Source: Candidatus Syntropharchaeum caldarium (GTDB taxonomy: Archaea; Halobacteriota; Syntropharchaeia; Syntropharchaeales; Syntropharchaeaceae). From it: DNA of 8,109 bases. Numbering within the stretch: the stretch's first letter is position 1; every line of letters starts with the position of its first letter. A program made the translations under genes and the position numbers. The notes beneath the pieces are model-generated. The model searched no databases. It saw nothing but the letters and a program-made list of their open reading frames with translations, and was not told where the DNA came from. The stretch spans positions 46,945 through 55,053 of the forward strand of contig LYOS01000003.1 in assembly GCA_001766815.1 (NCBI GenBank). Reading direction: 5' to 3'. This document shows, piece after piece, positions 1-8,109 of this stretch.

Positions 1-1847
1 ATAACGGTTCCACTCTCAACCATACGCTCAAGCTCATCCGGTGCCCATGTACCGACGTTTCTTCCCTGATGGAGCATGAGATCGAGAAGCTCCTTCTCAT
101 CAGGCACCTCTCCTTCCACATCATACCCCTCTGCCTTCATCGCATCAAGGAGGTCTGTGAGGCTCGGGACGATATCGAGGTAGCTTGCACCGAGGTTATC
201 CTTTCCTCCACCGTGGTTGTAGTAGATTATCGCAACTTTCTTATCCGAGTTCTCCTTTCTGTGAAGCTCTGCCCATGACATTGCCCGTTCGGTTATCCAC
301 TCAAGCTGGTGATCGAACGGCCTGTAGTAGAGCTCACCACTCACCGGATCCTTCTCCTTGCCTGAAAAGAGTATGAACTCGGTCTCACCATCCAGTTCCG
401 GAAGAGCGATCTGCCATGCAACCTCTGATGGTGATAACCCGTTGCTCTCATTCCATTTACTCTCATTCATGTAGACGCTCATGATTCCCTTGATCGGGGT
501 GACGTTCAGCTGCTGGAGGTAACCGATCCCCTCGTCTTCATGATGGTGCCACAGCCTGAATGAGTTGATGACGATAAGTGAGTCAACCAGTGGCTTGCCA
601 TCTCTGAAGAAATGTTCCGTGGTATCCGGGTCCTTGTAGCTGAAACTTCCAAATATCACATTCGCGCCCTTATCCTCTATCTTTCTTATGAGTGGATCGA
701 GTGTCTCGTATGAACCGTACTTCCCTGAGACATAGTAATAGTGGATGCCTATCGTGGGTGCACTCTCGTTATATCTCCCTGTGCTCTCATACCATGTGAG
801 ATAATCATCTATCGAGGAGAAAATTCCGAGTCCCTGGATTCCCTCAGCCTCTGCCTTTGCATCCGGGTGATATATTCCGAACTGCGGTATCACAACAGGT
901 GATGGGATTTCATCAACCCCAAAATCGCTTACCGGGATATCGCAGAGTTTCACACCCAAAAATACGAGTAATCCCCTCATGTTATCATTCCCACCGTTTG
1001 CCCAGTATGTGGCAATATCGGCAAATTCAGGGGATGAAAGGTTTACAGAAGACATACCATAGACGTCAGTGAAGCTGGTCGTAATCACATCAGCACCCTT
1101 AGCCTTTGCCTCAAGCACCGTATCCTTGAGTGCATCCTGTACCGGGTAACCGATCATCCAGAGGAAGATGACATCCTGATCGCTCAGGTTCAGACCCTGA
1201 TAGCTCTCTGGATCATCGTGCGTGTATGTACAGAGAGATACGTTGAGATTTCGCGTGATGTAAACATCATCCAAAGTATTCTCAAGCCATGCAGCGTATG
1301 ATGAGACCTCAGATACAACAAAAGCCACCTTTGCTCTTCCTGCAGGCGGCTCAGGTGGATCCATCGCTGTGCTGTTGCCATAGAACCTGTTATCCATGTA
1401 GGTAATGAGATTCCTTATGTTCTCATCACCGCCCCAGACCCAGTACTTCGTGATGTTCACATCATCCACATTTCCGATGCTTACGTTGGAGCTTAAGTTG
1501 TATGCAAAAACATACGCACTCTGGCTTAGTGTTTGATTTATGCTTGTAACGGTTTCATTATCGAGAGAAGCCAGAAACAGAACGCTTTCATTGCTGAAAT
1601 TCGCTGCTTTTGCCTCTGTTGCATTATATATGCTGATATTTACCGTAGCATTCACCGCTGCGTTCACAAGCGAGGCTAAATTCTCATCTGTTCCAAGAAC
1701 AAAGACGATTCTATTATCCTGTTCATCCGTCTGTACCTGTGCAAATGTCACCAACGGCACAAACAACTGTACCATCAACAAGAGCAATACCAGTGGTGCG
1801 ATCGAACGCACCCTTTTTATACGATTTCTTCCAATTCCATCATGCAT
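1..1847 (-). CDS. cobN: CobN/Mg-chelatase-family large-subunit homologue, N-terminal 615 codons (the rest lies beyond the window start). A predicted Sec signal peptide or N-terminal anchor suggests it is extracytoplasmic.
   Basis: It is absent from the ORF track because it runs off the window. I translated the reverse complement codon by codon from ATG 1847..1845, and the frame stays open for 615 codons down to position 3. An SD-like GAGGTGATC (1860..1852) lies 4 nt upstream of the ATG. The N-terminus MHDGIGRNRIKRVRSIAPLVLLLLMVQLFVPLVTFAQVQ has a basic n-region, a hydrophobic core and a TFA/Q cleavage-like site. Later blocks resemble the N-terminal half of CobN/ChlH proteins by eye: PTIGIHYYYVSGKYGSYETLDPLIRKIEDKGANVIF, KVAIIYYNHGGGKDNLGASYLDIVPSLTDLLDAMKAEGYDV and HQGRNVGTWAPDELERMV. 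Confidence 0.85.
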   Translation of the reverse strand, partial: MHDGIGRNRIKRVRSIAPLVLLLLMVQLFVPLVTFAQVQTDEQDNRIVFVLGTDENLASLVNAAVNATVNISIYNATEAKAANFSNESVLFLASLDNETVTSINQTLSQSAYVFAYNLSSNVSIGNVDDVNITKYWVWGGDENIRNLITYMDNRFYGNSTAMDPPEPPAGRAKVAFVVSEVSSYAAWLENTLDDVYITRNLNVSLCTYTHDDPESYQGLNLSDQDVIFLWMIGYPVQDALKDTVLEAKAKGADVITTSFTDVYGMSSVNLSSPEFADIATYWANGGNDNMRGLLVFLGVKLCDIPVSDFGVDEIPSPVVIPQFGIYHPDAKAEAEGIQGLGIFSSIDDYLTWYESTGRYNESAPTIGIHYYYVSGKYGSYETLDPLIRKIEDKGANVIFGSFSYKDPDTTEHFFRDGKPLVDSLIVINSFRLWHHHEDEGIGYLQQLNVTPIKGIMSVYMNESKWNESNGLSPSEVAWQIALPELDGETEFILFSGKEKDPVSGELYYRPFDHQLEWITERAMSWAELHRKENSDKKVAIIYYNHGGGKDNLGASYLDIVPSLTDLLDAMKAEGYDVEGEVPDEKELLDLMLHQGRNVGTWAPDELERMVESGTV

Positions 1848-1868
1848 ATCTGATCACCTCGGGTATGT

Positions 1869-1924
1869 TCAACCGTGATGCCCCCTCTGCCTGCAAGCGA
1901 AGTTGGGGCATCACAGACGGTTGA
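1869..1924 (-). promoter_or_regulatory. Intercistronic RNA stem-loop between the ExbD-like gene and the CobN-like gene (16 bp stem, 4-nt bulge, 20-nt loop)
   Basis: The minus-strand RNA reads UCAACC-GUCU-GUGAUGCCCC-[AACUUCGCUUGCAGGCAGAG]-GGGGCAUCAC-GGUUGA. The 10-bp inner stem (1875..1884 with 1905..1914) and the 6-bp outer stem (1869..1874 with 1919..1924) are perfect Watson-Crick complements. It starts immediately after the upstream stop codon (1925..1927) and ends 8 nt before the SD of the CobN-like gene. No oligo-U tract follows it. Confidence 0.6.
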
Positions 1925-2320
1925 TCAACCTTTTGATGTACCATTTTCTGGGATGTATATCACCTCTCCAGTATCAAGTCTATAAGCAGTTCCAAGCTTT
2001 CTGCCCTGTCCGCCCGCGATTTTCTCTGTTGCGTTCAGGACCTTTATCACGTCATGATCCTTGATTATCACCTGCATATCAGGCTCACCTGGGTTCTTGA
2101 CGATCGTGACAGATGCATCAGGATCAAGAAGCTCAGGTATGTTGTATGAGAGTACGAGTGCAACTAAAAGCGCTACAGCAAAGACCATCGCAACATCAAA
2201 GAGGTTTGCAACACTTGCCAGTGGATCATCTTCATCTTCAAAAATTGACTCCAGCCTCCTTTGTCTCACTTCAATACCTCCACAACATACTCCATATCGC
2301 TTAAATCCTGTGTGTACCAT
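1925..2320 (-). CDS. ExbD/TolR-like single-pass membrane protein (DUF2149-type). The true start is probably GTG at 2269, giving 114 aa.
   Basis: This is an ORF-track entry (131 aa from ATG 2320), but that start overlaps the MotA-like gene by 55 nt. An in-frame GTG at 2269..2267 overlaps the MotA-like TGA as GTGA and follows GGAGGT. That start gives M-RQRRLESIFEDEDDPLASVANLFDVAMVFAVALLVALVL. The layout is a short charged N-terminus, one TM helix with an Asp at its cytoplasmic edge (LFDVAMVF, compare E. coli ExbD FIDVMLVLL), then a small beta-rich C-terminal domain of about 70 aa. It sits directly downstream of a MotA/ExbB-type gene, as exbD, tolR and motB do. Confidence 0.8.
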   Translation of the reverse strand: MVHTGFKRYGVCCGGIEVRQRRLESIFEDEDDPLASVANLFDVAMVFAVALLVALVLSYNIPELLDPDASVTIVKNPGEPDMQVIIKDHDVIKVLNATEKIAGGQGRKLGTAYRLDTGEVIYIPENGTSKG

Positions 2321-2883
2321 CGCTTCTTGACAATAAGAACTGCGTAAGCGATTCCTCCTGTTAAAATACCGAGAACCGTGGTTGCAAATGCGATCGCAAG
2401 GTTTGATGCCAGCGCCTCGATATTGCCAGAGGATAAGCCCATGAGGGCAGGCCCCATCGGTATCAGTGTTCCCATGAGTCCAAGCATCGGTGCAATCCTT
2501 GAGATGAGTCTTGGTATCTCAAGTTCACGGGCAATCCTTAGCTCATAGTCCTGTAAAAGCTTCTCCGCCTCGATCGAAAAGTTCGCAGCATCGATAGAGC
2601 GTGTAAGATCTGTTATGAAGCTCTCAAGGAGGAAGTTTGAGCCTGAACTCCTGAGTACGCTTGAAGCTTCTTTGAAGTTTTTAAGCTCGATATTCTCCTT
2701 TGCAAGCTTCACTCCAGACTTGAGCCTGCTGAAATCCCTGTTTCTTGATGCATACTCAGATATGAACTGCCCAACGATCACGAATGAGAATGCGACGAGT
2801 ATGAGAAGCGCGATGACTACAGGATAGAGAAGTGAATTTGATATTACAAACATCAATCCCATTATTCCAGATGATATATCCAT
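2266..2883 (-). CDS. MotA/TolQ/ExbB-family proton-channel protein (205 aa)
   Basis: This is an ORF-track entry. It has an N-terminal TM helix, a cytoplasmic helical region of about 90 aa, and then two C-terminal TM helices with the family signatures IAPMLGLMGTLIPMGPAL (compare ExbB/TolQ APLLGLLGTV) and LAIAFATTVLGILTGGIAYAV (compare ExbB ALIATAIGL). Its ATG (2883..2881) overlaps the upstream TAA by 1 nt (TAATG). Confidence 0.9.
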   Translation of the reverse strand: MDISSGIMGLMFVISNSLLYPVVIALLILVAFSFVIVGQFISEYASRNRDFSRLKSGVKLAKENIELKNFKEASSVLRSSGSNFLLESFITDLTRSIDAANFSIEAEKLLQDYELRIARELEIPRLISRIAPMLGLMGTLIPMGPALMGLSSGNIEALASNLAIAFATTVLGILTGGIAYAVLIVKKRWYTQDLSDMEYVVEVLK

Positions 2884-3599
2884 TATTGACCCCCTTTTAC
2901 CGTTGAACGATTAAATCTATGGCTGAAGAAGCCGGATAGTATAAGAAAAGCAATTATGAAGAAAGAGGTTGCGGTCTCCTTCAAATTAAACGGAATTTCA
3001 ACCGATGGGAATGATTGTGCCTGAATATACGCAGGGATGATAATCGGTGAGATCAGATAGAAAAGACCAAATATGATCATCGCTGTTCCGAGTGCAGAGG
3101 GGCTTTTAACTCCAAACCTGGTTGCAAGTGTGGATATCGAGAAGGATGAGAGTGTGACACCGATGAAGAAGATCGTACCCAGACCTAAACCGATCCTGAA
3201 GTTACTCACATCGAGTGAGTTTGAAAGAATCACACATGAGAGAAAGGTCGCGGTCACACAGACCGGGCATGGTAATGAGAGTATTAAAAATGTCTTTCTC
3301 GAATGATCAGATCCACAGGATAACCACTCCTTCTTTGTATGGATACCAAAGAGTATGAGACCGATGGCAATAATAAGGTGCATCGTAACACCAGCGGCAA
3401 GTATCCCTTCTGTTAGATCTGAAGGAATGATCCCGACGAGGAGTGCCATCACGATTGATAGAAGAAAATAGCTTGAAGCAAGATATAGCACCTCACGTCG
3501 ATTGAGGCTTGCAAATCCACACCCTATACCGGTCTTAAGCGCCAGTATCGCGATGCCGATCAGAACACCTGTCGCTATAAGACCCGTTATTTCTGTCAA
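2883..3599 (-). CDS. Polytopic membrane protein, DUF2162-like predicted transporter, with an intramembrane CPVC motif (238 aa)
   Basis: This is an ORF-track entry. The start is TTG 3599..3597, preceded by GGAGTGAT (3613..3606) with 6-nt spacing, and an in-frame TAA lies 8 codons upstream. I count about seven hydrophobic segments. A Cys/His cluster reads SCGSDHS...LPCPVCV...LSCV (residues 95-122). The DUF2162 name comes from my memory of archaeal clusters of DUF2162, MotA-like, DUF2149 and CobN genes. It needs HMM confirmation. Confidence 0.7.
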   Translation of the reverse strand: MTEITGLIATGVLIGIAILALKTGIGCGFASLNRREVLYLASSYFLLSIVMALLVGIIPSDLTEGILAAGVTMHLIIAIGLILFGIHTKKEWLSCGSDHSRKTFLILSLPCPVCVTATFLSCVILSNSLDVSNFRIGLGLGTIFFIGVTLSSFSISTLATRFGVKSPSALGTAMIIFGLFYLISPIIIPAYIQAQSFPSVEIPFNLKETATSFFIIAFLILSGFFSHRFNRSTVKGGQ

Positions 3600-3677
3600 T
3601 ATGCCATCACTCCATACCTCTTAACTTTAGTAGAATCAAAAAATCTTACCTGTTAATAAATGTTTCGATATTTTAAG
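3600..3677 (-). promoter_or_regulatory. AT-rich inter-unit spacer with candidate archaeal TATA elements and a T6 tract (possible terminator and/or internal promoter)
   Basis: The minus-strand sequence is CTTAAAATATCGAAACATTTATTAACAGGTAAGATTTTTTGATTCTACTAAAGTTAAGAGGTATGGAGTGATGGCATA. TATA-like TTAAAATA lies at 3676..3669 and TTTATTAA at 3660..3653. T6 lies at 3643..3638. This and the 77-nt hairpin spacer at 1848..1924 are the only real intergenic gaps in an otherwise overlapping gene chain. The signals are short and degenerate. Confidence 0.3.
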
Positions 3678-4418
3678 TTAAAACAAGTTTACTTTATTAC
3701 ATCTGATACTCTGGTTGTTACGATCACTATTTGTATTAACGAATCGATGAGATCGCCCCCGTTGATGCAGTTCATCCATAATCCTCCTTTTAAGCTCGAA
3801 TATGAGGATGAACAAACCTGTCAGGAATATCACAACTCCTGCAATGATATTTGCTCTTCTCTCATTCTGGGGTGGGATCTTTCTTCCAGGAAGGTTTGTG
3901 AGATAGACGAGGACCCCCATCGTAAGAATCGTAAGCACCGCAAAGGTTATCATCGTAATCGCACCGAGCATTGCCCCTTTGAGTGATGCGATCACAAAGA
4001 TCGGGATTGCAGGAATACAGGGCATCATCCCGAGGATGAGTGCAAGCGAATAGAGTGTCTCATCATGGTGGGGGTCATGATCATCATGGTGATGAGGATA
4101 ATGCCTGTGAGAGTGGTGACCATGCAGAGCCATAACTGCGTAGAGTACTCCAAACCCACACAGAAGGTATCCTGCGAGGTTTTCTACAAAGGATGCTATG
4201 TACGCTGAGAATTCAAGCCCAACCACAAGTGCAATAAGCCCGATCAGTATTGACCCTGATACATGGGCAGATCCAACCAGTAGAACCGCCTTTACAATCT
4301 TCTTCTGGTCCCAGCGCTTTGCAAGAGCGAGCATCGAGATTGGAAGGTAGTGATCCGGAACGATTGTGTGAAGGATTGCGATTGTAGCTATCGCAACTAC
4401 GAATGTCAGAGCTTCCAT
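3678..4418 (-). CDS. Nickel/cobalt permease of the NicO/RcnA-like family with a His-rich loop (246 aa). Transport direction is unknown.
   Basis: This is an ORF-track entry with six hydrophobic segments. TM1 carries LHTIVPDH, which fits the H-x4-D-H Ni/Co-transporter signature (RcnA has HGLEPGH at the same place). The loop between TM3 and TM4 is HGHHSHRHYPHHHDDHDPHHDE, with 13 His in 22 residues. TM4 has GMMPCIPAIP (RcnA has GGLIPCPAAI). Its ATG 4418 follows the cbiO TAG with no spacer, and a GAGGTTGAT SD lies inside the end of cbiO. Confidence 0.8.
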   Translation of the reverse strand: MEALTFVVAIATIAILHTIVPDHYLPISMLALAKRWDQKKIVKAVLLVGSAHVSGSILIGLIALVVGLEFSAYIASFVENLAGYLLCGFGVLYAVMALHGHHSHRHYPHHHDDHDPHHDETLYSLALILGMMPCIPAIPIFVIASLKGAMLGAITMITFAVLTILTMGVLVYLTNLPGRKIPPQNERRANIIAGVVIFLTGLFILIFELKRRIMDELHQRGRSHRFVNTNSDRNNQSIRCNKVNLF

Positions 4419-5576
4419 CTATATCAACCTCTCCCACCTTATAGTTTTCCCACTCTTTCTGTTGTACTCCTCCACCCGTCTTGAAACAAGATCACTCATC
4501 CCACCTGAGGCAAACACAAGGACATTTCCTCCCCTAATCGCCTCAGATATCGCAGAATCTATCACATCGCTCTCAAAGTCAGACTCAATCCCGAGCATTT
4601 TCGCACATGCCTTTGCAGTTGTACCCATCGCACCTGTCTTATCAGGATCAAGATCCAGAACCTTCTTGAGTTCATCAAGATTTACAGCATCAGCCCCGCC
4701 CTCTTTCATCCCGGGGATTCTTACAACCCATATCTTCCCACTCTCTCTCTTCTCTGATCCGTTCAGATTTTCAACAAGGTCGATAATTGATAGCGGAATT
4801 CTATCCACTTTTTCGTATATTCCATGTGCCTCAAACTCTTTGTGTACCTTTACAACCACCGGAAACCTGAGATCAGTCGCTCTGACAACATCTTCATTGG
4901 AAAATATCTCAGAAGGATGTCCACGGGCATACACCATCCCCCTCTGAAGCAGATAAATCTCATCAGCCCACGCTGACGCGAAATCCACATCATGGGTCGA
5001 GACCACAATAGTTTTACCTTCTGCATTCAACTCATCAAGCAACTCAATCAGTTCTGTCTGACCCCGGGGGTCAAGCCCTGAGAGAGGTTCGTCAAATACG
5101 AGGATCTCAGGATCCATCGCGAGAATTCCTGCAATCGCAACACGTTTCTTCTGCCCGGTACTCAGATGGTGAGGGGGAACTCTCTCAAACCCGGTCATTC
5201 CTACGATCTCCAGGGACTCTCCGACCCTTTTTTCTACCTCCTCCCCGGGAAGCCTGAGGTTTGACGGGCCGAAGGAGACATCATCTTTCACGGTGGGTGC
5301 AAATAGCTGATCATCAGGGTTCTGAAATACGAGTCCAACGGTTGATCTGATCCAGTCGAGGTTCTTCTTTGTGATCTCCCTCCCTTTCACGATGACCCTA
5401 CCAGTCTGTGGTAGAAAGATGCCGTTGAGGTGATAGAAGAGTGTTGATTTGCCTGATCCGTTTGGTCCAAGGATTGCAGTCTTCTTGCCATCTTCCACAC
5501 TCAGGTTCACCTCTTTAAGAGCCTGTGTCCCATCAGGATACGAGTATGAAAGATTGCAAACCTCAATCGCGTGCAC
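4419..5576 (-). CDS. cbiO: ECF/CbiO-type ABC ATPase of the Co/Ni importer, with a non-canonical C-terminal extension of about 110 aa (385 aa)
   Basis: This is an ORF-track entry. The start is GTG 5576, 1 nt after the cbiQ stop, preceded by GGAGGGAT. Motifs present are Walker A GPNGSGKST, Q-loop FQNPDDQ, signature LSTGQKKRVAIAG, Walker B ILVFDEPLSGLD and H-switch STHDVD. The canonical CbiO/EcfA body ends at about residue 270, and residues from about 275 to 385 are extra. Confidence 0.93.
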   Translation of the reverse strand: MHAIEVCNLSYSYPDGTQALKEVNLSVEDGKKTAILGPNGSGKSTLFYHLNGIFLPQTGRVIVKGREITKKNLDWIRSTVGLVFQNPDDQLFAPTVKDDVSFGPSNLRLPGEEVEKRVGESLEIVGMTGFERVPPHHLSTGQKKRVAIAGILAMDPEILVFDEPLSGLDPRGQTELIELLDELNAEGKTIVVSTHDVDFASAWADEIYLLQRGMVYARGHPSEIFSNEDVVRATDLRFPVVVKVHKEFEAHGIYEKVDRIPLSIIDLVENLNGSEKRESGKIWVVRIPGMKEGGADAVNLDELKKVLDLDPDKTGAMGTTAKACAKMLGIESDFESDVIDSAISEAIRGGNVLVFASGGMSDLVSRRVEEYNRKSGKTIRWERLI

Positions 5577-5577
5577 G

Positions 5578-6381
5578 CTATATCCCTCCCATCATCCGAT
5601 CAAGAATAACCAGAAGAAACGATGAGAGGATGATGAACGATCCCAAGAGAGTTTCTTTCAGGGAGATTGGGCGAAATCCACTGACAATTCTTGAGTCTGC
5701 CCGATACCCCCTTGAGAGCATCGCAAGATAGACGCGTTCACCCCTTGAGAATGCTCGAAGCAGAAGTGCGCCACCGAGCATCCCGAGGTTATGCATCTTG
5801 GTAACGTATGAGAGTCGGTTTGAGAACCCGGATCTTGTCTGCTGTGCCCGGTACATTCTCACGCCCTCCCTTGAGAGCAGATGGACGTACCGTATCATCA
5901 TTCCGGTAAGATCCACGAAGATGGCGGGCACTCTGAACCATCTGAGTGCTGCAAGTGCATCCTGGATTCTCGTTGTTGCGATCAGTAAGTTGAGGACGGA
6001 TACCGATGCAATTATCCTTGCAAAGATCAGGATAGCGAGGTCAAGCCCGTTTTTGTATATTTGAACCCCCATAAATTCTGCCACAACCTCCTCACCTCCG
6101 TACGTGAGGAGGACAACGATAAAGACGACAATTGCTATTGTAAGCGGTGCTATAAGCCTTTTAAGCGTTGTATTCAGTGGTATTCCGATTGCAACAGAGA
6201 CTATAAGTGTTAGAAAAAAAATTAAGAGTGGGGTCCCGGGGTGAACCATCGAGACGACTGCAAATATAAGTCCAACGGCTCCAAGAAGCTTTATCCTTGG
6301 ATCCAGTCGGTGTAGCGCGGTCTCATCTACAACCAGCCTCTCAAAGTCGAGGTCCTCTATCAGTTCCGAAAAATCCCTCAT
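5578..6381 (-). CDS. cbiQ: ECF transporter transmembrane (T) component CbiQ (267 aa)
   Basis: This is an ORF-track entry. It has the N-terminal LHRLDPRIKLL motif typical of CbiQ/EcfT, several TM helices, and C-terminal coupling-helix Arg-Gly motifs (LRAFSRGERVYLAMLSRGY). It lies between cbiN and cbiO. Confidence 0.9.
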   Translation of the reverse strand: MRDFSELIEDLDFERLVVDETALHRLDPRIKLLGAVGLIFAVVSMVHPGTPLLIFFLTLIVSVAIGIPLNTTLKRLIAPLTIAIVVFIVVLLTYGGEEVVAEFMGVQIYKNGLDLAILIFARIIASVSVLNLLIATTRIQDALAALRWFRVPAIFVDLTGMMIRYVHLLSREGVRMYRAQQTRSGFSNRLSYVTKMHNLGMLGGALLLRAFSRGERVYLAMLSRGYRADSRIVSGFRPISLKETLLGSFIILSSFLLVILDRMMGGI

Positions 6382-6485
6382 CTCTTCCTTAGCTTCCTTA
6401 TCTCATACCCTATTATCGCAAAAAGGAAGAAGCCAACCGTTGTTCCGATTCCACTCAGGGGATCGCCTGAGAGCCATTCAAGCAC
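6378..6485 (-). CDS. Candidate small single-TM protein missing from the ORF track (35 aa from GTG 6485; up to 39 aa from GTG 6497). It resembles a stand-alone CbiN C-terminal helix.
   Basis: Manual translation gives VLEWLSGDPLSGIGTTVGFFLFAIIGYEIRKLRKR*. Its TGA (6380..6378) overlaps the cbiQ ATG (6381..6379) as ATGA. Candidate GTG starts at 6497, 6494 and 6485 lie just after AGGAGG (6503..6498), inside the end of cbiN. One hydrophobic helix is followed by a basic tail, consistent with the positive-inside rule. The ORF fills the otherwise unexplained 96-nt cbiN-cbiQ gap. It was probably too short for the ORF track. Confidence 0.45.
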   Translation of the reverse strand: MLEWLSGDPLSGIGTTVGFFLFAIIGYEIRKLRKR

Positions 6486-6771
6486 GCTGACCACCACCCT
6501 CCTTTATATCGATCCAGAAGTAACCGAAGATAAACCCTGCGATGATCCCTGCAAGTGTGAACCCGACGTACTCGCCCATATCGCCAAACGCTCCCACATT
6601 TGGAACAATATCTACGGCTTCAAGCCCTCCTGTGCTTGCTGCATGCTCCTCAACAATGCCATCGGTCCCCTCCATCCCGGCACCTGACGCGTATCCCGCA
6701 TAGGCGGCAACACACATCACAGCGGTGCAGACCACAAGAAGTATCAGGGAATTTCTGACAAAATTATCCAT
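6478..6771 (-). CDS. cbiN: Small two-TM component CbiN of the Co/Ni ECF importer (97 aa)
   Basis: This is an ORF-track entry. It has an N-terminal TM helix, an extracytoplasmic loop (GTDGIVEEH...) and a C-terminal TM helix GDMGEYVGFTLAGIIAGFIFGY. That helix fits the G-D/E ... G-Y layout of CbiN (Salmonella SGEIESLLFTLQGSLGAAVIFYILGY). Its ATG overlaps the end of cbiM by 8 nt (ATGGATAA), in the canonical position between cbiM and cbiQ. Confidence 0.8.
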   Translation of the reverse strand: MDNFVRNSLILLVVCTAVMCVAAYAGYASGAGMEGTDGIVEEHAASTGGLEAVDIVPNVGAFGDMGEYVGFTLAGIIAGFIFGYFWIDIKEGGGQRA

Positions 6772-7423
6772 CTATAGCACCTCCAAGCTTTGCAATAATA
6801 TCAGGTCTTGTATCTGCGATGTACTTCACGATCGCTGCGGTGAATATGAACTCAGCGACTGCAAGCGGCAGCTGTGTCGGGACAAATCCAAGCGAGTATA
6901 GCCCCCAGTGATAGAGAACCGAACCTGGATTTATCGAGAGTGCAAGCTCCATCGCGGTTGTGAGATAGCAAAGGATATCCCCTACAAACCCTGCCATACC
7001 TGCTGCAATCCAGACCGAGAGATTGGCTCTTCTCAGAAGAACGTATGTTCCATAACCTGTGAACGTTCCCACAATCCCCATCGATACCGTGTTCGCTCCA
7101 AGGGTCGTGATCCCCCCGTGTGCAAGAAACGCATGGAAGATGAGCGCAATCGCACTCAGAACAACGGTTGCAAACGGGCCAACGACAATCGCTGACATCG
7201 GTGTCCCGATTGGATGAGAGCACGAACCTGTAACGGGAACCGGGATATGCCAGACCGCAATCACAAAGATCGCAGCGCCCATAAGCGCAAGAAGCGGCAT
7301 GTATGACGGGGTTTCCTCTGTTCTTCGTTTAATCTCGCGGATGCCAAGGGCTATAAAGACGAGGGCAACCGCGTACCACACGATACACCACTGGGTACTC
7401 AGTATTCCATCTGAGATGTGCAT
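6764..7423 (-). CDS. cbiM: Substrate-capture (S) component CbiM/NikM of the Co/Ni ECF importer (219 aa)
   Basis: This is an ORF-track entry. The N-terminus MHISDGIL matches the CbiM/NikM MH-x-x-(D/E)-G motif, in which the N-terminal amine and His2 bind the metal. It also has the conserved GSCSHPIGTP His-containing loop and a polytopic topology. It is the first gene of the cbiMNQO order. Confidence 0.93.
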   Translation of the reverse strand: MHISDGILSTQWCIVWYAVALVFIALGIREIKRRTEETPSYMPLLALMGAAIFVIAVWHIPVPVTGSCSHPIGTPMSAIVVGPFATVVLSAIALIFHAFLAHGGITTLGANTVSMGIVGTFTGYGTYVLLRRANLSVWIAAGMAGFVGDILCYLTTAMELALSINPGSVLYHWGLYSLGFVPTQLPLAVAEFIFTAAIVKYIADTRPDIIAKLGGAIDG

Positions 7424-7560
7424 CCTATCAACTCCAATTTACTTGATATAAACTCAACGATTTGTCTTTAAGTCATTTGATATATATAAGTTTTGGTTTA
7501 GTAGCATGGATCATACGAACGGCAAAAGGGTTATGAATATCAACATAGACCTATCTTGAG
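7424..7560. promoter_or_regulatory. Divergent AT-rich promoter region shared by the cbiM operon (minus strand) and cbiD (plus strand)
   Basis: A palindromic TATATATA core (7481..7488) reads CTTATATATA toward cbiM and ATATATATAA toward cbiD. A second TATA-like TTTATATC on the minus strand (7452..7445) lies 21 nt from the cbiM ATG, which would allow a near-leaderless transcript. TTGATATA is repeated directly at 7443..7450 and 7477..7484. No transcription start can be determined from sequence alone. Confidence 0.4.
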
Positions 7561-8109
7561 ATGTTTGATCCAATCAATGGCCGAGAAATCCCTGAAGAAT
7601 GGATTAAAAGGTCTTCAATCCCCAGAAATGAGCTTAAAGAAGGTATTGAAAGTGGAAGGTTAATCCTTCTCCCGGATGGGAAAGTTTTAAGGCGGGGTTT
7701 TTCCACAGGAACGACAGCATCTGCTGCTTCAAAAGCCGCGGTCTTATCAATAAGCAAAAGAGTTGATAGAGTATCTGTGATGACCCCTATAGGAATCAGG
7801 GTTGAGCTGCTGGTCGAATCGGCAAATGGAGTTGGAAGAGCGGTTAAATACGCCGGAGATCACGAGTTTGACGTGACAGATGGGATTGAGATCATGGCAA
7901 CTGCGAGGCTCTCTGATGAGGGTATTGCCATAAAGGCCGGAAGGGGCATCGGCAGGTTTGAGGATGGAAGGCCTGCGATAAACCCTATACCGATGGAGTT
8001 TATCAGAAGAGCTGTACGTGAAGCGCTTGATGCAATCGGTGAGCAGGGTGTTGAAGTTGAGATTGAGGTTGTGAATGGTGAGGAGGTTGCAAAAGAGACA
8101 CTTAACCCT
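7561..8109 (+). CDS. cbiD: Cobalt-precorrin-5B (C1)-methyltransferase CbiD, N-terminal 183 codons (continues past the window end)
   Basis: It is absent from the ORF track because it runs off the window. The frame from ATG 7561 is open to 8109. CbiD hallmarks are LRRGFSTGTTASAASKAAVL (the G-x-T-T-G ... A-A-K-A-A motif), YAGDHEFDVTDGIEI, GRGIGRFEDGRPAINPIPMEFI and the terminal KETLNP (start of the NPRLGI block). Confidence 0.9.
   Translation, partial: MFDPINGREIPEEWIKRSSIPRNELKEGIESGRLILLPDGKVLRRGFSTGTTASAASKAAVLSISKRVDRVSVMTPIGIRVELLVESANGVGRAVKYAGDHEFDVTDGIEIMATARLSDEGIAIKAGRGIGRFEDGRPAINPIPMEFIRRAVREALDAIGEQGVEVEIEVVNGEEVAKETLNP

Follow-up and report, generated by a model that had tools for sequence, protein, structure and literature searches.

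The closest characterised relative of the proteins considered here is HmuS (BtuS) of Bacteroidota, an ATP-independent dechelatase that faces the periplasm, is anchored by helices at its N- and C-termini and is encoded in the hmuYRSTUV operon (PMC12583661, PMC13227078, PMC6460266); the reference proteins are those of Bacteroides thetaiotaomicron (PDB 9D26/9P4S) and Porphyromonas gingivalis (PG1553). CobN, the large subunit of the aerobic, ATP-dependent cobaltochelatase CobNST (EC 6.6.1.2; Mycobacterium tuberculosis 7C6O, 9UK9) and a member of the same class-I chelatase superfamily, is soluble and cytoplasmic, carries no signal peptide, transmembrane (TM) anchor or excess of N-glycosylation sequons, and needs a CobS/CobT AAA+/VWA motor. 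The function of many archaeal homologues of HmuS, CobN and ChlH was called unclear in the 2025 HmuS paper (PMC12583661), and members from Methanosarcina bear the SEED/RAST label 'CobN-like chelatase BtuS' (PMC10846266). Here, we analyse one such homologue, encoded at the left end of an 8,109-nt stretch of the Candidatus (Ca.) Syntropharchaeum caldarium genome (contig LYOS01000003.1, positions 46,945 to 55,053; the whole stretch is hereafter the window), together with the three genes that precede it, which encode a DUF2162 membrane protein, a MotA/ExbB-family protein and a DUF2149 protein.

We find that this four-gene system is an archaeal variant of the HmuS-type extracytoplasmic chelatase module, and neither the B12 cobaltochelatase nor a bona fide HmuS. 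Its CobN-like protein is very probably not a cytoplasmic cobalt chelatase of B12 synthesis but an exported, membrane-anchored relative of HmuS. On balance we judge it likely that the module, as an extracytoplasmic member of the class-I superfamily, works as a surface (de)chelatase or metal-capture device, probably driven by the proton-motive force rather than by ATP, and supplies cobalt or nickel to the cell. We found no paper describing the archaeal module in the literature searched, which took in few subscription journals, and a prior description is possible.

The CobN-like protein and its archaeal family

The CobN-like open reading frame (ORF) starts with an ATG at 1847-1845 and stays open for 615 codons, and both the start codon and its ribosome-binding site are conserved in two related genomes (L010 and L001). 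An earlier note on this DNA, made from the letters alone, had proposed a Sec-type signal peptide, and the N-terminus agrees with that proposal: the n-region MHDGIGRNRIKRVRS has a net charge of +4, the h-region IAPLVLLLLMVQLFVPLVTF comprises 20 residues with a mean Kyte-Doolittle hydropathy of 2.49, and the predicted cleavage site, TFA/QV, satisfies the -3/-1 rule. The call is rule-based (charge, hydrophobicity and the -3/-1 rule) and backed by conservation in the family. The N-terminus contains no twin-arginine motif, and no second segment of comparable hydrophobicity occurs in the 615 residues of the fragment.

The fragment holds 18 N-x-S/T sequons (x not Pro), 10 of them within residues 66-131, which is exactly the count, and very nearly the cluster, that the note had reported. 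Its expectation of only a handful by chance was equally sound, as shuffles of the same residues yield 4.7 ± 2.0 sequons, none of 10,000 shuffles reaches 18, and a Poisson estimate for at least 10 sequons in 66 residues is ~2e-10. The resulting density of 29.3 per 1000 residues compares with 4.3 in 246 TM-free neighbour ORFs from related loci, with 1.2-3.6 in four cytoplasmic-type CobN/ChlH homologues (P0023-P0026) and with 8.6 in a fifth (P0027). While the note was right that a CobN homologue and dense sequons occur in one protein, the two need to be placed apart: the Pfam CobN domain (PF02514, E 5e-75) spans residues 280-604, and the cluster lies upstream of this core in an extra N-terminal domain that holds 11 of the 18 sequons. 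This extra domain resembles residues ~170-300 of the same protein (pairwise E 4e-6), lies upstream of the HmuS-alignable region, which begins at about residue 215, and an AlphaFold2 (AF2) model shows two successive four-strand alpha/beta units with a predicted local distance difference test score (pLDDT) of ~80-95. Judged by these similarities, the extra domain arose by duplication of the chelatase head domain and has since diverged.

Scanning a single genome per species yielded 188 relatives. We read 75 loci, extracted 106 CobN-like ORFs from them, and counted motifs over 92 full-length members. The hosts are Syntrophoarchaeum, the anaerobic methanotrophic archaea ANME-1 and ANME-2, Methanosarcinaceae, Methanotrichaceae, Methanomicrobiales and Archaeoglobaceae, and complete members are about 1320-2290 residues long. 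A hydrophobic core at the N-terminus is present in almost every N-complete homologue, and nearly every C-complete ORF closes with a TM helix followed by a basic tail (such as ...PISGAPLMGIIAVIVILVLIGIGLGLKRR; L008 is the one exception). The C-terminal architecture lies outside the window and is taken from orthologues 85-92% identical to the window protein (L010 and L001), chiefly the full-length orthologue of Ca. S. butanivorans (L010; 1532 residues, 85% identity), which ends in a Thr-rich stalk (ESTTTTTTSQETTTH...), then a TM helix, then RRR. No archaeosortase-signal model (PGF-CTERM type) of NCBIfam matched at the C-terminus, and the anchor therefore looks like a plain TM helix.

The abundance of sequons extends to the family, with a pooled density of 19.9 per 1000 residues and a ratio of observed to composition-expected sequons of 2.39, against 1.05 in the neighbours. 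Many sequon columns are conserved, being common to a third to four-fifths of members, and residues ~700-800 and 1200-1400, which correspond to the active-site face and domain VI, are almost devoid of them. These features strongly support export by a predicted Sec signal peptide and tethering to the external side of the membrane through a predicted C-terminal TM helix behind the Thr-rich stalk. Also strongly supported is a sequon density such as archaeal N-glycoproteins would show, and the protein is probably heavily N-glycosylated. The family as a whole is sequon-rich and probably exported, consistent with archaeal N-glycosylated surface proteins, its glycosylation and location being predicted.

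Two or three tandem CobN-like paralogues occur in 27 of the 75 loci, and such paralogues (for example in L037, L042, L044 and L049) have one DUF2162-MotA-DUF2149 set in common; the longer ones, of up to 2287 residues, contain more copies of the head domain. A CobN of the Haloferax glycoproteome was set aside as not relevant: it is another, ChlID-linked CobN, and the call there is one of O-glycosylation in the cytoplasm.

Kinship with HmuS and the partner genes

The full-length orthologue of L010 can be aligned over ~1200 residues to HmuS, CobN and ChlH, and among PDB sequences HmuS (9d26) scores best at 543 bits, followed by M. tuberculosis CobN at 493 and ChlH at 480. The preference is more marked in the C-terminal 433 residues, for which HmuS scores 200 bits versus 134 for CobN and 97 for ChlH. 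A Foldseek search with the AF2 model of the window fragment likewise placed HmuS first (E 2.8e-17, TMq 0.46; CobN 0.38, ChlH 0.29), and the top 10 matches were all HmuS, CobN or ChlH; sugar-binding proteins appeared only as weak matches. By sequence and modelled fold, then, the window protein belongs to the class-I (CobN/ChlH/HmuS) chelatase superfamily. With CobN it has in common the PF02514 architecture of domains I-VI, but it scores below the curated cut-off of all nine NCBIfam CobN/BchH equivalog models, including the best, NF004645 (1346.6 bits versus 1619), and TIGR02257 (626 versus 822).

The DUF2162-MotA-DUF2149 triplet adjoins the CobN-like gene or genes in 46 of the 75 loci and is cut by contig ends in 7 more; most loci without it begin inside tandem CobN arrays or at a contig end. 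Eight loci even reproduce the hmu arrangement, S-(membrane protein)-U-V. For comparison with B. thetaiotaomicron we used the hmu locus on a B. thetaiotaomicron-like metagenome contig (L079). The MotA-like protein of the window is 36% identical to HmuU over 199 residues (E 2e-45; both proteins have 205 residues) and the DUF2149 protein is 49% identical to HmuV (E 2e-33), making them, on sequence, clear orthologues of HmuU and HmuV. The DUF2149 protein also matches SCAL_001014 of the thermophilic, butane-oxidising archaeon Ca. Syntrophoarchaeum caldarius at 100% identity. In L079 itself, hmuS (L079:5087-9491) is called as two ORFs of 970 and 496 residues, in keeping with the frameshift or erroneous annotation that PMC12583661 mentions for the reference genome.

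DUF2162 sits in the operon slot of HmuT and has an invariant P-C-P-x-C motif plus conserved Cys27, His74, Asp98 and Cys122. The motif is reminiscent of the CPx motifs of soft-metal transporters, which we take to be a resemblance only. An identity of DUF2162 with HmuT was considered and rejected (BLASTP E 4.6, hhalign probability 0.4%, and no DUF2162 Pfam match in HmuT).

The other two genes recall the ExbB-ExbD, TolQ-TolR and MotA-MotB units in combining a MotA/ExbB Pfam domain with an overlapping downstream gene for a small single-TM partner that has an invariant Asp. In ExbD, TolR and MotB the small partner has a single N-terminal TM helix with an Asp, and DUF2149 has a single N-terminal TM helix with an invariant Asp at the helix start (ANLFDxAMVFA). 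In the window DUF2162 and motA overlap by 1 nt and motA and DUF2149 by 4 nt, the GTG start of DUF2149 overlapping the MotA stop. The domain of DUF2149 predicted to lie outside (C-terminal) has an N-x-T sequon that is invariant across 20 archaeal homologues and missing from Bacteroides HmuV. Unlike the known stator units, this pair has no TonB, Pal or flagellar client, and since the archaeal host has a single membrane, the client must be a protein of the cytoplasmic membrane or the surface.

The archaeal system resembles HmuS and its partners in several respects: the class-I chelatase fold, with HmuS the best match in both sequence and fold; an N-terminal signal or anchor and a C-terminal TM helix that place the bulk of the protein outside the cytoplasmic membrane (PMC13227078); co-operonic MotA/ExbB and DUF2149 proteins of equal lengths and no AAA+ partner gene nearby; and a conserved GTHG His and NVGEG Glu. 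It differs in having no HmuY hemophore, HmuR TonB-dependent receptor or outer membrane, in adding one or more duplicated head domains, dense sequons, a Thr-rich stalk and a CCHHTC motif to the chelatase, and in genomic links to cobalt transport and B12 genes rather than to heme uptake. There is strong support for regarding the system as the archaeal equivalent of the HmuS, HmuU and HmuV core found in the hmu operon of Bacteroidota.

Metal site, proposed mechanism and rival explanations

The GTHG His (motif HFG(T/A)HG; HmuS His-538) and the NVGEG Glu (HmuS Glu-577, ChlH Glu-660) lie beyond the window and are present in its 85-86% identical orthologues (L010 and P0001). Across the family they occur in 80 of 92 and 86 of 92 members, respectively, so that retention of the catalytic His and Glu of the superfamily is strongly supported by alignment. 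The D-x-D-D motif is found in 70-77 of the 92; where HmuS has LSLDHxxEFMGG, with a His-1209 and Glu-1212 that never vary among HmuS proteins (PMC12583661), the family has LDNDDxxxYLGG (LDNDDQFSYLGG in the L010 orthologue). This acidic motif is of the CobN type and, with the His and Glu, corresponds to the H554/E593/D1100 cobalt site (bioRxiv 10.64898/2026.07.21.739949), and association with cobalt and B12 genes is a further likeness to CobN. A conserved Met (68/92) sits one residue before the column aligned with Met-79, which in HmuS is a heme ligand of the head/neck region.

Near the C-terminus, just before the Thr-rich stalk, the family has a T-C-C-H-H-T-C-G-N motif (L010 residues 1399-1407; L010:14198-14224) whose three Cys are present in all 92 full-length members. 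HmuS has SCSGFVCDN at this place, and CobN and ChlH end before this region of motif, stalk and anchor. The CCHHTC motif is a candidate metal hand-off site.

The module as we picture it would comprise a CobN/HmuS-like ectodomain subunit, the DUF2162 membrane protein, the MotA/ExbB-like channel and DUF2149. The MotA/ExbB-DUF2149 pair would couple the proton-motive force to the chelatase itself: there are no ATP or AAA+ motors outside the cell, and no outer membrane or TonB-dependent receptor to serve, and the pair therefore most likely drives the chelatase. The chelatase would strip or capture metal from an extracellular tetrapyrrole or ligand complex, the metal being cobalt or nickel more plausibly than heme iron, as the CobN-type site, the CCHHTC motif, the PCPxC partner and the cobalt/B12 neighbourhood point to extraction or capture of Co/Ni and not to a harvest of heme iron. 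From the CCHHTC motif the metal may pass to the Cys-rich DUF2162 permease and/or to CbiMNQO, and it would serve the B12- and F430-dependent metabolism of methanogens and alkane oxidisers. We offer only tentatively a more specific version, in which, in these single-membrane archaea, the stator-like pair replaces the AAA+ motor and mechanically drives glycosylated, surface-tethered chelatase 'pliers' that strip Co/Ni from metallotetrapyrroles or tight complexes in the environment, with the metal relayed from CCHHTC to DUF2162.

Several observations weigh against this account. Asp stands at the position of HmuS His-1209 in 70 of 92 members, and just 3 have His there, and HmuS His-254 (HGR motif) aligns to the Ser of 'NSFRL', seen in the window protein, with no conserved His at or beside that column among the 92 members. 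The ~120-residue Met-rich insertion of domain IV is absent, HmuS 698-927 facing only ~70 orthologue residues (886-957). With neither the Met-rich insertion nor the HmuS ligands His-254 and His-1209/Glu-1212, the family cannot simply be assigned the chemistry of HmuS. HmuS needs NADH-derived electrons in vitro (PMC12583661), and no electron source is evident at the locus. Phe stands in place of the catalytic GTHG His in 12 of 92 members, and these are for that reason probably non-catalytic paralogues. At most loci CbiMNQO is not a neighbour. No similarity of DUF2149 to ExbD/TolR emerged when PDB sequences were searched with a profile, its only Pfam match at E<=10 is DUF2149 itself, and the quality of its AF2 model (pLDDT 56) does not allow a search by fold; the basis of the stator analogy is therefore the Pfam MotA/ExbB match, the gene overlap and the invariant TM Asp. 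Finally, the signal-peptide and TM calls are rule-based predictions, and the C-terminal anchor is read from orthologues beyond the window.

The protein could instead be a surface accessory that binds free or weakly complexed Co/Ni for CbiMNQO or DUF2162 and performs no tetrapyrrole chemistry. CbiMNQO transporters, of the energy-coupling factor (ECF) type, have no solute-binding protein, the window and four further loci (L001, L002, L006 and L023) place cbiMNQO just ahead of the module, and an invariant CCHHTC, a conserved His/Glu/Asp site and the PCPxC of DUF2162 all agree with metal binding. We nevertheless consider such a role unlikely, since a CbiM or CbiQ match is adjacent in only 7 of 75 loci, the entire 1300-residue chelatase body is kept with its cavity motifs, which is costly for a simple binder, and the conserved energising pair suggests work on a tightly bound substrate.

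Slightly harder to sustain is a true functional orthologue of HmuS, that is, a heme dechelatase acquiring iron by drawing Fe(II) out of extracellular heme and leaving protoporphyrin IX. HmuS is the closest characterised relative, the HmuU/HmuV orthologues are co-operonic, the His-538 equivalent is conserved, and the CobN-like 'BtuS' proteins of Methanosarcina barkeri shift in abundance with the Fe/S source (PMC10846266). The exchange of the HmuS LSLDHxxEFMGG motif, the unconserved head/neck ligand His-254, the missing Met-rich insertion and an unrelated DUF2162 in place of HmuT all speak against it, as do genomic links that, in the loci examined, are to cobalt transport and B12 genes and not to feoB; we regard this reading as quite improbable.

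We give still less credence to an import receptor or processing enzyme for corrinoids or other tetrapyrroles, in which DUF2162 and the MotA/ExbB-DUF2149 pair would move the macrocycle rather than the metal. For bacteria, HmuTUV has been put forward as a heme transporter of the inner membrane (PMC13227078, PMC12094164), the Syntrophoarchaeum module is flanked by cbi genes, and the head/neck domains resemble periplasmic binding proteins (PMC12583661), a likeness echoed by the weak Foldseek matches. DUF2162, however, is small (238 residues) and has a soft-metal-type PCPxC rather than the traits of a permease for large substrates, an anaerobic B12 pathway that looks complete is encoded nearby, and an Rfam scan of the whole window at E<=1 returned no cobalamin riboswitch or other credible RNA, the sole match being a chance one to RsmV at 16 bits.

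An ordinary cytoplasmic CobN of B12 synthesis, its signal peptide and sequons due to chance or a mis-called start, is effectively refuted: the annotation 'cobaltochelatase subunit CobN' (NCBI and JGI), the nearby B12 genes and the CobN-like DxDD central motif are outweighed by the conserved start codon and ribosome-binding site, the signal peptide, C-terminal TM anchor and 4-5-fold sequon excess seen family-wide, scores below every equivalog cut-off, a locus encoding the anaerobic early-insertion pathway (CbiD, CbiG and others), and no AAA+/VWA partner gene nearby, neither the window nor the 10 kb on each side of the L010 orthologue containing a gene of the ChlI/ChlD or CobS/CobT type. The earlier note had likewise argued that the protein is unlikely to be the B12 cobaltochelatase and probably acts on the cell surface, and that argument gains from the stalk, TM helix and RRR of the L010 orthologue, from signal, anchor and sequons throughout about 100 members with many conserved sequon positions, from HmuS as the nearest solved relative, from its co-operonic HmuU and HmuV orthologues and from this lack of motor genes nearby.

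Under the reading that we prefer, a surface (de)chelatase or metal-capture module supplying Co/Ni, one large archaeal clade has an extracytoplasmic, membrane-anchored and sequon-rich chelatase-family protein with a CobN-type metal site, encoded alongside HmuU/HmuV orthologues and a different, Cys-rich membrane partner. As these archaea have no outer membrane, their MotA/ExbB-DUF2149 pair cannot serve a TonB-dependent receptor, and this bears on the interpretation of the bacterial hmu operon: if the mechanical proposal is true, HmuU and HmuV of Bacteroidota would energise HmuS and not the TonB-dependent receptor HmuR, as currently drawn. Methanogens, ANME and alkane oxidisers, the hosts of the module, have a heavy requirement for Ni (F430) and Co (corrinoids), and a dedicated surface machine for metal salvage would matter for trace-metal limitation of methane cycling. 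A Methanothermobacter CobN homologue, whose membership in the archaeal surface family is unconfirmed, is made only under Ni limitation (PMC12350162). Methanosarcina relatives are genetically tractable, which makes the idea directly testable.

Gene layout, cobalt genes and the junction at position 3781

The features of the window are collected in Table 1. In Ca. S. butanivorans (L010), three tetrapyrrole methylase genes, cbiG, cbiA and cbiC lie directly downstream of the module, and the connection of the module with cobalt and B12 probably has a functional meaning and is not contradictory. The earlier note had placed CbiD at 7561..8109; the gene is there, on the plus strand, and its near-identical copy matches PF01888.

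The adjacency of CbiD and CbiMNQO to the module in the window is not to be over-read because of a junction at about 3781. From 3781 to 8109 the window shares 99.98% identity with contig LYOR01000010.1 of Ca. S. butanivorans (L076), on which unrelated genes come after cbiMNQO and the His-rich gene, whereas positions 1-3565 are only 81% identical to the module of Ca. S. butanivorans itself (L010) and match Ca. S. caldarius. The junction falls within the last ~35 codons of the His-rich gene, and those codons differ from L076 and L078. It may reflect a chimeric assembly from a co-culture metagenome or a recent inter-species recombination. The adjacency of cbiMNQO and the module is native in L001.

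Table 1. Features of the window, by position in the 8,109-nt stretch.
Feature	Position	Strand	Basis or remark
CobN/HmuS-like surface protein, N-terminal 615 codons	1..1847	-	translation; gene runs on past the window's left end
Head, neck and start of body domains, residues ~170-604	36..1340	-	homologous to HmuS/CobN/ChlH
Extra N-terminal alpha/beta domain, residues ~45-160	1368..1715	-	sequon positions, pairwise similarity, AF2 model
Predicted Sec-type signal peptide, residues 1-36	1740..1847	-	rule-based; predicted cleavage TFA/QV
Sequons at residues 66, 70, 75, 83, 86, 97, 104, 117, 121, 131, 158, 202, 220, 269, 360, 448, 461, 466			
Ribosome-binding site GAGGUGA	1854..1860	-	6 nt 5' of the CobN-like ATG
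Conserved intercistronic stem-loop between DUF2149 and CobN-like genes	1875..1914	-	perfect 10-bp stem GUGAUGCCCC/GGGGCAUCAC
DUF2149 protein, 114 residues, HmuV orthologue	1925..2269	-	PF09919, E 3e-32
MotA/TolQ/ExbB-family proton-channel protein, 205 residues, HmuU orthologue	2266..2883	-	PF01618, E 1e-11
DUF2162 polytopic membrane protein, 238 residues, 'predicted transporter'	2883..3599	-	PF09930, E 1e-57
Promoter-like BRE/TATA element CGAAACATTTATTAACAGG, 5' of DUF2162	3649..3667	-	sequence resemblance only
His-rich (HGHHSHRHYPHHHDDHDPHH) DsbD_2-like membrane protein	3678..4418	-	
CbiM, CbiN-like, CbiQ, CbiO(+DUF7839): ECF-type cobalt (or nickel) importer	4419..7423	-	Pfam and NCBIfam matches
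cbiO with extra DUF7839 domain	5576-4419	-	
cbiQ	6381-5578	-	
cbiN-like gene, 97 residues	6771-6478	-	
cbiM	7423-6764	-	
cbiD, 5' part, anaerobic B12 pathway, divergent from cbiM	7561..8109	+	PF01888 on the 99.98%-identical gene in L076

The promoter-like element before DUF2162, a B recognition element (BRE) and TATA box by resemblance, is conserved with Ca. S. butanivorans (L010), and its core CGAAACATTTA is also found in L001; on the strength of this element the sequence suggests that the four genes of the module (DUF2162, MotA, DUF2149 and CobN-like) form a transcription unit of their own. Between cbiD and cbiM (7400-7600) and ahead of DUF2162, a search for inverted repeats returned no operator-like palindrome, for example of the NikR type.

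The His-rich protein has a 20-residue His-rich loop and is encoded directly after cbiO; its gene is kept in L076 and L078 and absent from the syntenic L001. From its sequence this DsbD_2-like protein is probably a Ni/Co transporter or a metal buffer. The 97-residue protein in the CbiN position has two hydrophobic segments and no Pfam or NCBIfam match, CbiN included, and the C-terminal DUF7839 domain of CbiO spans residues 278-362. The stem-loop between the DUF2149 and CobN-like genes folds at -34.4 kcal/mol (z -3.2), its stem being kept and its loop varying in L010 and L001, and it may act in mRNA processing or stability or in the tuning of translation.

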